This document shows positions 23,722 through 28,814 of a stretch of DNA of 64,000 nt, piece by piece. The notes beneath the pieces were generated by a model that was not told where the DNA came from, searched no databases, and saw only the letters and a list, made by a program, of their open reading frames with translations. Origin of the DNA: Chloroflexota bacterium (GTDB taxonomy: Bacteria > Chloroflexota > Anaerolineae > Aggregatilineales > J027); NCBI GenBank assembly GCA_016234595.1, contig JACRBG010000011.1, positions 37,227-101,226 of the forward strand. The letters run 5' to 3'. The number at the start of each line of letters is the position of its first letter. The stretch's first letter is position 1. The position numbers and the translations under genes are program-made.

Positions 23722-24188
23722 CTTTATGACCTCCTAAAAACTGTAACCTTTAATTTTTTCTCTTTTATATCATGCAACAAATTTACTGTCTTAGGCCTGC
23801 CAAACTTGTGCCATGTTGGAAATCTCATCCATATAGACCTATTTGGGTGGGTGGCATAGCTTGTTTATTGAGGATGAGAAAAAAAGTAGACGAGTGCCCA
23901 CAGTGAAACAGACCCTGAACCGCTAACACGCGCTCCCCATCAGGGTCTTGCCCACTTGTTAGAGTCAATAGCCTATCCACAACGATCACAATTGGAGATT
24001 TCGATAACGACTGCCTAGAGAGGGGTTTGGCAGGGAGAGTTTTGAATTCCCCCTGCACCATCTGAAGTCAGCCATTACCAGTGACTTCAATCGGTAGTGT
24101 ACCACACCTTTTGGTACAGCCGATTTTTGAAGGAATCACTGAAGGCAAATCGCAAGTGTATTCGGGGTTTACCATCAGGAGGATAGCT

Positions 24189-25019
24189 ATGACCCCAGTT
24201 TTTGTACTCACCAATCATAAGGGCGGCGTGGGGAAATCTACGTCCGCGACAAATATCGCGTTTGGCATCGCACAGATGCTGGCGCAGTTCGGCGTTGCCA
24301 ATCATCGGGTGCTGTTGATTGACACCGACAGTCAAGGGCACGCCACCCTCGTCACTACCAGTCGGAATGATTTCGGACGTGAGGATAGTCTGTATACCGT
24401 ACTCAATGCTGATCGCAAAGATGCCGCCACTGTATTGAAGCAATGTATTGTGGCAAGCGAATGGGACGCCGATTTGCATGTCCTCCCCGCCTCCCCACTA
24501 CTCGAAGCCGCCGAACGGGAATTAATCGCCGTGCCCGGTGCGCCCTACCGATTATCAGAACCCCTCGCTCAGCTTGCCAGTCACTATGCAGCCATCGTAA
24601 TTGACACCCGCCCTTCCTTCTCCCTACTCACTGAAATGAGTCTAATCGCCGCGACGGATGCGCTTATCCCAATTGAGCCGCGTTATCTAGAAACAGTCGG
24701 TTTGGAATCAGTGGTCAATAAGATTGAGTCCATTCGGCAGGGCTGGCGTTGTCCGGATTTGAAGGTGAGTGGCATCGTCGTCACCAAACTCGACAAACGC
24801 ATGAAGGGCCATGTCGAGATGGTCGAAAGCCTCAAAGCCCATCCGGTACTGGGGCGGTTGCTGTGTGGGGTCATTCCGGCCAACGAAGCAGTGGCCTATG
24901 CCCATCATGCCCATAAAAGCGTGTATGCGTACAACCCCGAATGTCCCGCCAGCCAAGCCTATGCGGTGTTGGCAGCCCGTCTCATCAAAAAAACAATGGC
25001 GATTAGGGGAGGTGCGTGA
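24189..25019 (+). CDS. parA: ParA family partition ATPase
   Basis: Deviant Walker A KGGVGKST, LIDTDSQG, VIDTRPS; ATG 24189 after AGGAGG. Confidence 0.93.
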   Translation: MTPVFVLTNHKGGVGKSTSATNIAFGIAQMLAQFGVANHRVLLIDTDSQGHATLVTTSRNDFGREDSLYTVLNADRKDAATVLKQCIVASEWDADLHVLPASPLLEAAERELIAVPGAPYRLSEPLAQLASHYAAIVIDTRPSFSLLTEMSLIAATDALIPIEPRYLETVGLESVVNKIESIRQGWRCPDLKVSGIVVTKLDKRMKGHVEMVESLKAHPVLGRLLCGVIPANEAVAYAHHAHKSVYAYNPECPASQAYAVLAARLIKKTMAIRGGA

Positions 25020-26224
25020 TGGCAAAAAAAGCCGATACTCCCAATCGGATTAATGCCCTGCTGCAAGATGTGGGGCAGATGATGATTTTGAATGCTGATC
25101 CCGCTGAACGGTTGGATGATAGTCAACTCCGTGTTGAAAACCTGCCCATCCAACTGGTGCGGCCTGATCCGGCCCAACCCCGGCGAGTGTTGCCCGAAGG
25201 GATTTACCAAGCGTTTCACCAAGAACACCTCACGCCGTATCAAGCCCTGAAGGAACTTGTTCAATTGGTGCAAATCGCGGCGCGGCAAAAGGGGCGACCC
25301 TTTACCCATGTGCTCGATTTACTGCCGAATCCGAATGACGAAACTGAGGCGGAAGTCACGACGACACTCTTGCCAGAGGAAACTCTGCTGCGGGATTTGG
25401 TCAACTTGGCCGTGACGATTCGGGATGATGGTCAGGTCAATCCGCTGACCGTGGTGGATAAATCCGAAGGGGTGAGCCACATCTATCAAATTGAGACAGG
25501 CGAACGGCGCTACTGGGCGACATGGCTGATGATGGAATTCCTACCGGGGTATCAAGGCAATGGTTCTATCCCTTGCATCATTGTCCCCTCCAATCGAGCC
25601 TCGGTTTTTCGTCAGGCTAAAGAGAACACCTCGCGGGCTGGTCTGAACGCCATTGCGATGGCACGGCAGGCGGCACTGTTGTTGTTAGCTGTACATGGTA
25701 TTGTGCCACCCCTTGAAGGGCCAATCTCCAACGATTTCTATCGTCTGGCTCTCGAATTTACCCTGAGAGATAAGCGCGACTATGCCAACGATATTCTTGC
25801 CGCGATGGGTGGAATTACCCGTAGCTACTTCAGCTACTACAAATCCTTGTTGCGCCTTTCTGATGACGCGCTGGAATTGGCGGATCGTAACAGCATTGAT
25901 GAAAAGAAACTCCGCTATGTTGTTTCACTGCCGGTGGAAGCTCAGGTTGAAATGGTGCGCCAGATCATAGACTTTGGCTTGACTAGTGCGCAGGTGAAAG
26001 AACTCTGCTCAGATGAAGCAGGGCTGGATAAGTCAGTGGATGATCAATCTCCTAAAAAAGCAAAGCAATTAATCAAACTCATCCGCGCCACAATGGACAC
26101 CACCCCAGCCCAATTTGCACAGGCTTTAGTTGATCAAGAAAAAACCGTGCACATGGCAAAAGCTCGCCTCAATGAGCTTCGTGAGCTGTTTGACGAGGTA
26201 GAGGAATTTCTGAGCAGGCAATAA
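25019..26224 (+). CDS. parB: ParB family partition protein (CTPase N-domain)
   Basis: VRPDPAQPRR, GQVNPLTV, IETGERRYWA (GxxR motif); coupled to the parA stop. Confidence 0.85.
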   Translation: MAKKADTPNRINALLQDVGQMMILNADPAERLDDSQLRVENLPIQLVRPDPAQPRRVLPEGIYQAFHQEHLTPYQALKELVQLVQIAARQKGRPFTHVLDLLPNPNDETEAEVTTTLLPEETLLRDLVNLAVTIRDDGQVNPLTVVDKSEGVSHIYQIETGERRYWATWLMMEFLPGYQGNGSIPCIIVPSNRASVFRQAKENTSRAGLNAIAMARQAALLLLAVHGIVPPLEGPISNDFYRLALEFTLRDKRDYANDILAAMGGITRSYFSYYKSLLRLSDDALELADRNSIDEKKLRYVVSLPVEAQVEMVRQIIDFGLTSAQVKELCSDEAGLDKSVDDQSPKKAKQLIKLIRATMDTTPAQFAQALVDQEKTVHMAKARLNELRELFDEVEEFLSRQ

Positions 26225-26248
26225 ATTGTTGACCCGGGTCAACAATTT
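26223..26248. promoter_or_regulatory. Perfect 26-bp palindrome, candidate parS centromere
   Basis: aaattgttgacccgggtcaacaattt, no spacer, directly at the parB stop codon. Confidence 0.7.
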
Positions 26249-26261
26249 TGAGGAGCAACCC

Positions 26262-26366
26262 ATGACTAACCGATCACGTGACCCGCCGAAAAAAGAAAAA
26301 CCGCCTTACCAGTTAGGGCAGGCGGACAGGTCAGGTCAATCAATTAATCAAAATCAATTGCAATAA
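26262..26366 (+). CDS. 34-aa leader ORF upstream of the replication protein
   Basis: GAGGAG RBS at about 26250-26255; MTNRSRDPPKKEKPPYQLGQADRSGQSINQNQLQ*. Confidence 0.5.
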   Translation: MTNRSRDPPKKEKPPYQLGQADRSGQSINQNQLQ

Positions 26367-26375
26367 ACCGTAGCA
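26288..26375 (-). ncRNA. Predicted counter-transcribed antisense RNA (ctRNA-like, about 85 nt)
   Basis: Minus-strand promoter TTGCAG-N17-TACAAT and terminator CCGCCU-N13-AGGCGG-UUUUUCUUUUUU. Confidence 0.65.
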
Positions 26376-26381
26376 TGTTTC

Positions 26382-26410
26382 ATTGTAATTGGTTCGTGAC
26401 CTGTCTGCAA
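26382..26410 (-). promoter_or_regulatory. sigma70-type promoter of the antisense RNA
   Basis: -35 TTGCAG (26410-26405), 17-nt spacer, -10 TACAAT (26387-26382). Confidence 0.65.
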
Positions 26411-26465
26411 GCACCGTCAACCACTATTTGACATTTGAAAACTTAACCCGGACAGGAGCAACACT

Positions 26466-28814
26466 ATGGCTAGTGTGTCACAGGAATCGCTGATCGTTCA
26501 GGCCGCCCAATCCAGTAGCCTCTTGGATGCGGCATTGATGTATGCTCGTTTAGGGATGAGTGTTATCCCCCTGAAAGGGAAACGCCCTTCACTGTCTAGT
26601 TGGACGCAACTTCAACAAGTTCGCGCCGATGCCGTTGTAATTCATCGCTGGCAGCGGAATGGGCTGCTGCATAACGTGGGCATCGTCTGTGGAGCAGCCT
26701 CACAAAATCTGGTTGTTTTGGATACCGATGGTGCAGCCAGCTATCCAGCTTTTGCTGCTATGTTCCCTAAACTAGCGGAGACCTATACCGTTGCGACGGG
26801 CAGCGGCAAAGGCCACCACGTCTATTTCTATGTGGAAAAACTGCCTGAGAGTATCAAGGCTATGGGTCTGCCGATTGGCAATCTTGAATTGTGCGCGAAT
26901 GGGCGACAGGTGGTCGCTCCGCCAAGTTTGCATCCAATCACGGGTAACCCCTATCGGGTGCATAAGGCCTTGGATATTCTGCGGGTCGAAACGCTTAATG
27001 AATTGGCTGAGTGGATTAAGTCGTTCAAGGCCAAACCTGCGTTTGCACCAGTCCACTTTTTGCCAGTGTCACCACATGATTCTGCCAAATTGAATCCAAA
27101 GGTAATGGAGGAAATTGAACGACATTTTCTGCGACAGGGGTATCGAGAAGTCGGCGAATGGCTGCATGGGCCGTGTATTTATCCCCATCGGCATCAGCAT
27201 GGCGACCGCAACCCTTCCTTTGGATTCAATCGCTTCAGCGGATTTGGCTCGTGTTTTGTGTGTGGCACGATTCTGGCGAAAGACATCTGTGCAGCGGTTG
27301 GGATTGATGTCAGTGTGCTAGGCGGGTTGGTGGAAAAGTCTTTTAACACCAACCCCCATCACCAGCCCACAGCCGTTAGGCTGTCTTTACCACCTACGGA
27401 ACCTCCGATTCCAAGTGAAACCAAGCTATCTAGTATTGCATTGCCACCAAGCACCCCGCCACCTTCTGAACCGAGTCAGGGATTTGCGATGAATGATCTC
27501 AAACTCCCAGAGTGGCTCAAACTCTATGTGGAATGGGCCGGGGCGACGGGTAATCAGACACCGTTATCTTTCCATCTTGCGGCGGGATTGTGGCTGTTGT
27601 CGGTCGCGGTGGGGCGACGTTTGTATGGTGCTGCCCCTTGGGGAGTGAAGATTTTCCCCAATCTGTATTTGATGCTCATCGCGGCGACGACCTATTATCG
27701 CAAATCCACCGCTTATAAATTGGCGGAGGGCATCGCACATGAGGCCATTCCACATATGCTCATGCCAACACCGGGTTCACCCGAACGTTTTCAAGAGGCT
27801 CTGGCGGGCCAACTACCGGGTAATTTTGACAAGCTCAATCCAACCGAACAAGAACTTTTTCGCAAGGCACAGCCGTTTGCAGCCCAGCGCGGGTTGCTTA
27901 AGGATGAGGTCGCTGGATTATTTGGGGTCATCAACAAGCGGGATTATATGGTCGGCATGAAAGATTTGTTGATGGAACTCTATGACTGCCCTGATCGCTC
28001 TAGTAAAGAAACACAGGCGGGAGTCACGATTGTTGAGAAGGCGGCTTTATCCATCTTGGGCGTGACGACTCCGGCAGGTTTGGCGGCTGGGGTGAGTGAG
28101 GCGGATTGGGCGAATGGCTTGCTGGTACGCTTTGCCTTGATTACACCTGAAACAGATTATGCCGAGCGCCCCGCAGCCATCGCCTTTCAGTCACCACCAC
28201 CGAAGCTCATTGAGGGCTTACGTCGTTTACACGAGCGCCTGCCAAATCCTGTCCGGACAGAACGCGGATTGACCCCACCGAGTGCCCTGCAATTGGATGT
28301 CACCTGCTGGCGTGAATGTCAAAATTATGGCGATCATCTGCGCCGCCTGTGTGCACCGCAGCAAGACACTGAATTAGATGAGCGACTCAAGGGCGTCTAT
28401 GGGCGGCTGCATGTCCAAGCCTTCAAACTTGCTACCCTGATGGCTGCCTTAGATTGGCTAGATACCGACACCTCGGCGCCAACACTCACAGTTGACCATT
28501 GGGTGATGGGGGAGACTATGGCTGAAACATGGCGTATGAGCGCTCATCGTTTGCTTGAACAAATGGATCGGCGGGGTGAGGCTAGTCATGAACGTCGCCA
28601 GCAAGATACATTGTTACGGGCGATTCGACAGGCAGGGGCTGAAGGGGCGAGTCTACGGGTGTTATATCGTAATCTCCACCTGACTGCCCAACGTGCGCGA
28701 TTGTTGGCCCAAGAATTAGCGCGTGCAGGCTTGGTGGTGGAACGGCGTTTTAGTGGCATTGAGTGGTATGTTGCTAGTGAATATGCCACAGATGAGACTC
28801 CTGCCATCGGGTGA
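26466..28814 (+). CDS. Putative replication initiator: bifunctional primase-polymerase + Zn-binding domain + DUF3987/YfjI-like NTPase + winged helix
   Basis: N-term LGMSVIPLK, NVGIVCG, LVVLDTD, TGSGKGHHVYF, QVVAPPSLH; CIYPHRH...DRNPSF...CFVC; NLYLMLIA....RKST and GLLKDE. Confidence 0.82.
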   Translation: MASVSQESLIVQAAQSSSLLDAALMYARLGMSVIPLKGKRPSLSSWTQLQQVRADAVVIHRWQRNGLLHNVGIVCGAASQNLVVLDTDGAASYPAFAAMFPKLAETYTVATGSGKGHHVYFYVEKLPESIKAMGLPIGNLELCANGRQVVAPPSLHPITGNPYRVHKALDILRVETLNELAEWIKSFKAKPAFAPVHFLPVSPHDSAKLNPKVMEEIERHFLRQGYREVGEWLHGPCIYPHRHQHGDRNPSFGFNRFSGFGSCFVCGTILAKDICAAVGIDVSVLGGLVEKSFNTNPHHQPTAVRLSLPPTEPPIPSETKLSSIALPPSTPPPSEPSQGFAMNDLKLPEWLKLYVEWAGATGNQTPLSFHLAAGLWLLSVAVGRRLYGAAPWGVKIFPNLYLMLIAATTYYRKSTAYKLAEGIAHEAIPHMLMPTPGSPERFQEALAGQLPGNFDKLNPTEQELFRKAQPFAAQRGLLKDEVAGLFGVINKRDYMVGMKDLLMELYDCPDRSSKETQAGVTIVEKAALSILGVTTPAGLAAGVSEADWANGLLVRFALITPETDYAERPAAIAFQSPPPKLIEGLRRLHERLPNPVRTERGLTPPSALQLDVTCWRECQNYGDHLRRLCAPQQDTELDERLKGVYGRLHVQAFKLATLMAALDWLDTDTSAPTLTVDHWVMGETMAETWRMSAHRLLEQMDRRGEASHERRQQDTLLRAIRQAGAEGASLRVLYRNLHLTAQRARLLAQELARAGLVVERRFSGIEWYVASEYATDETPAIG

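Follow-up and report, generated by a model that had tools for sequence, protein, structure and literature searches.

A predicted countertranscript RNA cassette and a switch-type leader hairpin in front of a Prim-Pol initiator gene in Chloroflexota

Organization of the Locus

The DNA analysed here, which we call the window, is a stretch of 64,000 nucleotides from a bacterium of the phylum Chloroflexota. One of its loci carries, in this order, parA, parB, a perfect palindrome at the parB stop, a leader ORF of 34 codons, a large leader hairpin that we named P2, and rep, whose product joins a Prim-Pol domain to a DUF3987 domain (Table 1). On the opposite strand, the leader of rep contains the elements of a predicted antisense RNA: a promoter, located in the 3' arm of P2, and a terminator hairpin, named P1. 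A promoter for rep was also looked for between P2 and the Shine-Dalgarno sequence (SD), but this interval gave no consistent pair of -35 and -10 elements; TATATA boxes, which some clades of relatives possess, were discarded as rep promoters, since the transcript would then start inside or after the SD.

Table 1. Features of the leader of rep and of the neighboring genes; positions are those of the window
Feature	Position	Strand	Basis or remark
parA	24081-25019	+	Pfam AAA_31/CbiA
parB, upstream gene of the operon	25016-26224	+	Pfam ParB_N + HTH_ParB
Perfect palindrome AATTGTTGACCCGGGTCAACAATT at the parB stop	26224-26247	.	read from the sequence; candidate protein-binding site (parS or operator)
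Leader ORF, 34 aa	26262-26366	+	preceded by a strong SD, GAGGAG; stop codon within the P2 5' arm
A-tract AAAAAAGAAAAA (letters of the + strand)	26289-26300	-	U-run of the predicted antisense terminator
P1, CCGCCT...AGGCGG	26301-26325	-	predicted antisense terminator hairpin, followed by UUUUUCUUUUUU
Predicted antisense RNA, ~85 nt	26290-26375	-	promoter and terminator geometry; 5' stem-loop and terminator hairpin
P2 leader hairpin	26322-26408	+	5' arm (a) 26322-26368; loop 26369-26376; 3' arm (b) 26377-26408
Predicted antisense promoter in the P2 3' arm	26382-26410	-	-35 TTGCAG 26410-26405; 17-nt spacer; -10 TACAAT 26387-26382
Segment b, CCUGUCUG	26400-26407	+	pairs with 26323-26330 (P2) or with 26449-26456 (alternative)
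Segment c, CGGACAGG	26449-26456	+	direct repeat of 26323-26330; overlaps the first 3 SD bases
rep SD AGGAG; start codon ATG	26454-26458; 26466-26468	+	read from the sequence
rep, 782 aa, Prim-Pol + DUF3987	26466-28814	+	PF09250 1.7e-23; PF13148 3.4e-11

Homologous Leaders

Homologs of Rep were found at 43 loci in Anaerolineae and Aggregatilineales genomes, and a large collection contained 246 homologous proteins. For the comparisons described below, we assembled 46 leaders from these homolog loci, from protein look-ups and from a paralog co-resident with the window on contig C25 of the same genome. All 46 leaders possess P1, P2 and the A-rich run before P1. The genes that precede them distinguish a near clade, with a Rep identity of 70-86%, which has parAB and the leader ORF upstream, from a distant clade, in which an actin-like ParM/Alp gene is found together with a gene of the CopG type (ribbon-helix-helix) whose stop codon lies in P1. 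A pattern search across the class, in 400 genomes, returned the window as its sole match, and a metagenome pattern scan for further near-clade leaders gave four matches which turned out to be unrelated coding sequence.

The palindrome at the parB stop is present at the same position, with a variable core, in all near-clade loci. In the window and in L006-L009, L029 and L054-L061, its arms are conserved (TTGTTG/CAACAA), the cores vary (ACCCGGGT, CCCCGGGG, CCACGTGG, ACGCGCGT), and two of these loci (L009 and L029) have two copies. The palindrome is probably an operator or a parS site.

The Leader Hairpin P2

P2 is built from a base of 12 bp with one G.U, formed by GCGGACAGGTCA (26322-26333) and TGACCTGTCTGC (26397-26408), i.e., in RNA letters, GCGGACAGGUCA (26322-33) with UGACCUGUCUGC (26397-408); from an inner stem of 10 bp, likewise with one G.U, formed by CAATTGCAAT (26355-26364) and ATTGTAATTG (26382-26391), or CAAUUGCAAU (26355-64) with AUUGUAAUUG (26382-91) as RNA; and from an apical pairing of AAAC (26365-26368) with GTTT (GUUU in RNA, 26377-26380). 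The pairing segments that a preliminary description of this DNA had quoted for 26322-26408 are all found at their places, and RNAfold returned this same hairpin both as the minimum free energy (MFE) structure and as the centroid, with an energy of -40.6 kcal/mol and a z-score of -6.64. None of 200 shuffled sequences was as stable, and the stability of P2 is clearly beyond chance.

P2 is conserved in all of the approximately 46 homolog leaders despite the divergence of their sequences. In an alignment of 13 near-clade sequences, the core of the a:b helix was 93.5% paired, with one pair changed from GC to AU on both sides; its covariation score was matched by none of 500 shuffles, and controls in which the pairing was slid along the same alignment all dropped to 29-44% paired. 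Outside the aligned core, the stems of P2 can be wholly different and yet paired, as illustrated by GUCA/UGAC in the window and ACCUUCAAAA/UUUUGAGGGU in L009. These comparisons argue that P2 is under selection. Its default helix a:b is conserved as well as covarying, as in two-state switches of the pre-emptor type, and the assignment of P2 to the switch-type hairpins is well supported.

The P2 5' arm of the window also has an insertion of 13-14 nt (26336-26351) which is absent from its closest relatives. On the sense strand this insertion forms an unpaired internal loop, and on the antisense RNA a stem-loop of 9 bp with two G.U pairs, a possible toehold or kissing loop specific to one strand.

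The Predicted Antisense RNA

On the minus strand, P1 and the run that follows it constitute a textbook intrinsic terminator. The P1 arms, CCGCC...GGCGG, were found in every homolog leader, the A-rich run before P1 has a mean of 8.2 A per 12 nt over the 46 leaders and, on the sense strand, the 3' arm of P1 overlaps the base of P2 by 4 nt. In 46/46 leaders, the best sigma70-like site of the minus strand between P1 and rep predicts a start about 2 nt away from the middle of the P2 apical loop, the elements of this promoter being TTGCnG and TACAAT separated by 17-18 nt in the near clade, and TGGACA or TAGACA and TATCCT separated by 17 nt in the distant one. A small RNA bounded by an opposite-strand promoter and an intrinsic terminator, as in replicons controlled by countertranscripts, is therefore predicted in the window and in all 46 leaders. 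This fixed geometry is the strongest result of our analysis, and it makes the presence of an antisense cassette in front of rep a well-supported prediction. The preliminary description had supposed an antisense RNA binding over 26288-26375; the conserved promoter and terminator support the proposal and place the predicted RNA at about 26290-26375.

The predicted antisense RNA folds into a 5' stem-loop followed by the terminator hairpin (z = -3.2), and the 5' stem contains two G.U pairs that exist on the minus strand only, the corresponding positions of the sense strand being A.C mismatches. Because this RNA is predicted to start at the apex of P2 and to terminate at P1, it would cover P1 and the 5' arm, never the 3' arm; in all 46 leaders it thus covers a and not b, as in pre-emptor switches. 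It would therefore compete with the 3' arm of P2 for one partner, the 5' arm.

Evidence for transcripts of this region, sought in metatranscriptomes, is weak. Contigs from relatives 95-96% identical to the window, in two datasets, contain only the leader, from 26289 to 26445, and one of them also 26451-26583; a soil metatranscriptome contains the equivalent portion of an L006-like leader. All of these are unstranded Logan contigs of low depth, none of which reveals the antisense RNA. Runs X5, X10 and X19 gave unstranded contigs of ~150 nt over the leader, with or without the 5' end of rep, and X12 and similar runs recorded as possible RNA are effectively DNA because they contain contigs of 54 kb. 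A search of Rfam with cmscan over 25500-27200, on both strands and with E-values up to 10, gave no ctRNA match and one weak, unrelated match to a CRISPR-DR; in the same interval, no covariance-model match was obtained to ctRNA_p42d, ctRNA_pT181, ctRNA_pGA1, ctRNA_pND324, CopA or RNAI.

Primase-type plasmid initiators can use hairpin initiation signals, and Rep is itself a primase-polymerase. The inverted repeats could then function as DNA, either as single-strand initiation or origin hairpins for the Prim-Pol protein or as operators, and CGGACAGG, with two direct copies and one inverted copy in a span of 135 nt, would suit such a role. We regard this explanation as highly improbable: the geometry of promoter and terminator is conserved in 46/46 leaders, both P2 and the antisense stem accept G.U pairs, a sign of RNA rather than of DNA, and GGACAG is not enriched elsewhere in the window. 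With 16 copies on both strands of the 64 kb, this motif was accordingly rejected as a repeated protein-binding motif.

The Alternative Helix over the rep Ribosome-Binding Site

The preliminary description had also noticed that CCUGUCU (26400-06), in the 3' arm of P2, is complementary to GGACAGG (26450-56), at the rep SD. This pairing exists and is one base pair longer, forming a helix of 8 bp with one G.U (26400-26407 with 26449-26456), because CGGACAGG is an 8-nt direct repeat present at 26323-30 and at 26449-56. Only 3 of the 5 SD bases (AGG of AGGAG) lie inside this b:c helix. Folding with and without the antisense RNA gave the two states that had been anticipated: P2 forms when the leader is alone, and the b:c helix appears on co-folding with the antisense RNA, as it does in the MFE structure once the antisense target is masked.

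The strength of this second helix was evaluated through the cost of opening the rep translation-initiation region (TIR, -14 to +5 around the start), which rises from 7.3 kcal/mol in the free leader to 11.7 kcal/mol in the masked one, a difference of +4.4. With shuffled arms the opening cost was 7.5 +/- 1.5 (z 2.7), and 8.0 +/- 2.0 (z 1.9) in a repeat. The isolated b..c hairpin has an energy of -12.6 kcal/mol, and the contiguous b:c helix, compared with windows from the same gene, gave a p of ~0.05 for the 48-nt arm and of ~0.03 for the 15-nt base segment. These two tests replaced an RNAduplex comparison of the 48-nt arm with the TIR, which was uninformative because large internal loops give a background of about -19 kcal/mol. 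The TIR is partly paired already in the free state, and the pairing probability of the SD in the masked leader of the window (0.67) does not differ from that of the shuffled control (0.63). On these figures, the b:c helix of the window is a borderline case as regards chance. In a strain 95% identical to the window (run X5), G26450 is replaced by A, so that the wobble G.U of the b:c helix becomes an A-U pair.

Upon the observed structures, the geometry of the cassette, the covariation in P2 and the thermodynamic prediction, the following mechanism may be built. P2 would be the sense half of a countertranscript copy-control cassette inserted between parB with its leader ORF and rep. The antisense RNA, of about 85 nt, would start in the apical loop of P2, copy the complement of the 5' arm and stop at the P1 terminator. 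When P2 closes first, the ribosome-binding region of rep would stay comparatively open and Rep would be made. If instead the 5' arm is taken by the antisense RNA, P2 would let go of its 3' arm, whose CCUGUCUG (26400-07) could pair with CGGACAGG (26449-56); the resulting hairpin, at about -12.6 kcal/mol, would cover the SD in its 5' half and reduce the translation of rep. Production of the antisense RNA, its binding and the drop in translation caused by the freed arm are inferred here, the drop in translation being the least certain of the three. A two-state leader driven by a countertranscript, in which the freed 3' arm partly covers the rep SD as the output in the window, is the reading that we prefer, at a likelihood that comes close to an even chance and stays slightly below it. 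The hiding of the ribosome-binding site, considered by itself as the output, is plausible but unproven, and we would put it just under the halfway mark.

Evidence from the Relatives

The evidence that the b:c helix is under selection is mixed. In the near-clade alignment there is no compensatory change in b:c, and its observed pairing was reached in 500 of 500 shuffles; the covariation across homologs, which the preliminary description had proposed as a check, is thus found in a:b and is missing from b:c. When the released state of 13 near-clade leaders was folded with RNAalifold, b:c was the only shared structure, with a consensus energy of just -4.0 kcal/mol and a covariation term of +0.2. 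Two relatives (L055 and L061) have changes in both b (CGGUC, GUGUC) and c (AACAGG), which break the helix without compensation. The predicted change in opening cost is close to 0 in subclades N3 (71% identical) and F4, and mixed, from -0.4 to +3.9, in the 85%-identical subclade N2. For the contiguous helix, the p-values were 0.07-0.6 in the relatives of the window and 0.7-1.0 in clade F1, with a median of ~0.58 over all loci, and Fisher combination of the representative subclade p-values from the test on the 15-nt base segment gave ~0.14. By exchanging the arms between subclades, we observed that the own arm occludes its own TIR at least as much as the arms of other subclades do in 10/10 subclades (with one tie), the difference being 0 to +3.7 kcal/mol. 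In the co-resident paralog, an anti-SD-like CCCUCCCUCUGCUGUCC facing GGACAGGGAG is predicted to be paired with the TIR in both states, with opening costs of 7.1 and 7.6 kcal/mol. Across the family, these sequence comparisons amount to a small, weak trend in favor of occlusion by b:c. The central claim of the preliminary description, that antisense binding frees the 3' arm which then hides the ribosome-binding site, is consequently upheld by co-folding and opening cost in the window, but it loses ground in L055 and L061, where the helix is gone, and in N3 and F4, where it would change almost nothing.

Several of these results speak for the main rival explanation, possible although in our opinion rather doubtful, which accepts the cassette and P2 but sees the 8-bp anti-SD helix as incidental and lets the antisense RNA lower Rep by another route: RNase III-type cleavage of the ~85-bp duplex and its decay, blocking of ribosomes in the leader or the upstream ORF, or collision of convergent transcription. 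P2 would then be only a timer or a decoy which limits when the antisense RNA binds. In addition to the lack of covariation in b:c, its loss in two relatives and the absence of a predicted effect in two subclades, the complementarity does not exceed background in most relatives, and both segments may be conserved for other reasons: b because it belongs to the base of P2 and to the antisense promoter region, and c because it is part of the SD context ACAGGAG, common even to the distant L010. Against this explanation, a conserved and covarying hairpin that hides the antisense target is hard to understand if nothing follows from the release of its 3' arm; an antisense RNA starting at the hairpin apex, as predicted in 46/46 leaders, is the geometry of known refolding switches; and the arm-swap and opening-cost tests display a small, consistent trend towards occlusion.

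Comparison with Known Copy-Control Systems

The repABC plasmids of alphaproteobacteria use a small antisense RNA called ctRNA, RepE or incA (PMC3155836; PMC6090056). Without it, the intergenic mRNA is one large stem-loop in which the SD and the AUG of the initiator are single-stranded, and pairing with the antisense RNA refolds the leader into an intrinsic terminator, a stem followed by a U-run (PMC3155836). The window resembles these plasmids in the order of a parA-like gene, a parB-like gene, an opposite-strand small antisense RNA gene (predicted here) and an initiator gene, as well as in the large leader stem-loop that leaves the initiator SD free. It differs from them in several respects: the initiator is a Prim-Pol (PF09250) and DUF3987 (PF13148) protein and not RepC, the host belongs to Chloroflexota, Rfam gives no ctRNA match, a leader ORF runs across the antisense target, and the predicted antisense RNA is longer, ~85 nt versus ~50 nt in repABC. 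Above all, the refolded state has no U-run: after 26456 the window reads AGCAACACUAUGG, and the sequence following the b:c helix (...GGACAGGAGCAACACUAUGG) contains none, which is not the terminator of the repABC S element. The parallel with this S element that had been drawn for the window therefore holds for the large stem-loop and the free SD and fails for the refolded leader, which forms no terminator. Since there is no U-run after the b:c helix, any output of the switch would have to be translational and not a termination of transcription.

In plasmids pT181, pIP501 and pAMbeta1, the antisense RNA is transcribed from within the leader; a:b is the default pairing, but once a is bound by the antisense RNA, b is free to pair with c, which forms a terminator with a U-run. 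The three segments a, b and c and the pre-emptor logic are found again in the window, whereas its b:c helix overlaps the SD, lacks a U-run and has no comparative support. A conserved, covarying hairpin that hides the target, combined with an antisense RNA that starts at the hairpin apex, is how the pre-emptor switches of pT181, pIP501 and repABC are built.

The geometry shared with those systems (PMC3155836) would also agree with attenuation, the released 3' arm acting as an intrinsic terminator before rep, and U-runs do exist between P2 and rep in some relatives (GAUUUUUU in subclade N2 and GUUUUAC in clade F1). We nevertheless give attenuation hardly any likelihood: the window has no U-run after the alternative helix, the U-run segment of N2 being deleted there; inspection of the folds of the relatives revealed no consistent stable stem ending at a U-run; and for the U-run of clade F1 a better explanation is an A-rich, UP-like element that precedes the antisense -35. 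An activating pseudoknot between the P2 loop and the ribosome-binding region, of the type of IncB/ColIb-P9, was rejected as well, inspection having given only 5-bp A/U matches.

The distant clade, including the copy on C25, recalls another system, the CopG and RNAII control of pMV158/pLS1, through its CopG-type gene, its antisense cassette and rep. RNAII of pMV158/pLS1 pairs directly at the translation-initiation region of repB, whereas in the present family ~75-90 nt separate the end of the antisense target from the downstream rep start, and where the distant clade has the CopG-like gene, the window has parAB and a leader ORF.

The Leader ORF and Its R-[D/G/A]-P-P Motif

The leader ORF encodes an R-D-P-P motif whose codons (26277-26288) lie 18 nt before P1. 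In 12/12 near-clade leaders with enough sequence, the ORF has an SD, a start ATG and, in frame, R-[D/G/A]-P-P, the motif being located at residues 6-9 (8-11 in L029) and reading RDPP in the window and RGPP or RAPP in the relatives. In this ORF the third-position changes are synonymous and the indels upstream of the motif are multiples of three; after the A-tract the frame drifts, and the ORF is 17 to 54 aa long depending on the leader. In all 12 leaders, 17-20 nt separate the first Pro codon from P1. RAPP and RGPP are the strongest known ribosome-arrest cores, while RDPP is partially permissive and strongly avoided in proteomes, and small upstream ORFs with RAPP-type motifs precede genes of diverse function (PMC12992588). 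The window thus possesses a RAPP-like core, in the weaker RDPP form, in a small ORF upstream of rep. A ribosome arrested at R-D-P-P would directly adjoin P1 and the 3' end of the antisense target; we present this as a lead rather than as a finding. Compared with the arrest peptides of the RAPP type (ApdA, ApdP, SecM-like), with which it shares the motif, the leader ORF has this motif at residues 6-9, whereas in those longer secreted or membrane peptides it lies close to the C-terminus; the leader ORF also precedes a gene for a replication initiator, and any arrest in it is a prediction from sequence.

The switch could then be driven by the ribosome, the leader peptide stalling at R-D-P-P, the place of the stalled or released ribosome deciding whether P1 and P2 fold and hence the expression of rep, and the antisense RNA having only a modulating role. 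Such a mechanism would account for the presence of the motif in 12/12 near-clade leaders, for the synonymous changes, for the fixed distance of 17-20 nt to P1 and for the drifting downstream frame, and the arrest strength reported for RAPP and RGPP, with RDPP partially permissive, also speaks for it (PMC12992588). We judge it quite improbable, since the nascent chain has just 8-9 residues at the stall point and the distant clade possesses P1, P2 and the antisense cassette with a CopG-like gene ending in P1 and no such ORF. Because this clade lacks the motif, R-[D/G/A]-P-P cannot be the core mechanism of the family.

A combination of the two regulators may also be imagined, in which a very short arrest peptide and a countertranscript RNA abutting the stalled ribosome with its 3' end would jointly set the fold of P2 that gates translation of the Prim-Pol initiator. 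We consider this improbable; at the same low level of confidence, it would be a pairing of regulators that had not been described together before. If true, this would be the first arrest peptide wired into the copy-number control of a replicon, regulation by arrest peptides would, through the RAPP-like leader peptide, reach the control of replication as well, and the antisense RNA would represent a new ctRNA family for multi-replicon Anaerolineae genomes.

Significance and Co-Resident Copies

To our knowledge, almost nothing is known about the control of extra replicons in Chloroflexota. Antisense-RNA copy control with a refolding leader is a known kind of regulation, of which we found no description for this phylum and this type of initiator. 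The cassette reported here is conserved with a fixed geometry in 46/46 leaders, is absent from Rfam and precedes an initiator unlike those of the classic systems. It occurs moreover in two contexts, one similar to repABC (parAB and leader ORF) and the other similar to pMV158 (CopG-type gene). If the switch works as proposed, it would provide these replicons with a compact determinant of copy control and incompatibility, and it would be useful for the construction of vectors in a phylum with few genetic tools.

Several observations concern the copies of these modules and their repeats. The genome of the window contains a second copy of the distant-clade type, L062 (G000:C25:166500-169560), and the same layout is seen in L027 and other distant-clade loci. 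Several Anaerolineae genomes carry two or three diverged Prim-Pol modules, some of them in megabase contigs; examples are QMIT01 and JBGSUK01, with 3 copies each, and the 6.2-Mb contig CBDCXQ010000001. These modules could be integrated elements, chromids or assembly joins. Copies residing in one genome have different P2 sequences, which would be expected of incompatibility determinants. Finally, the coding region of rep contains a 12-nt palindrome, CTGTCCGGACAG (28249-28260), with the same GGACAG motif as the leader repeat, a coincidence that may be due to chance.
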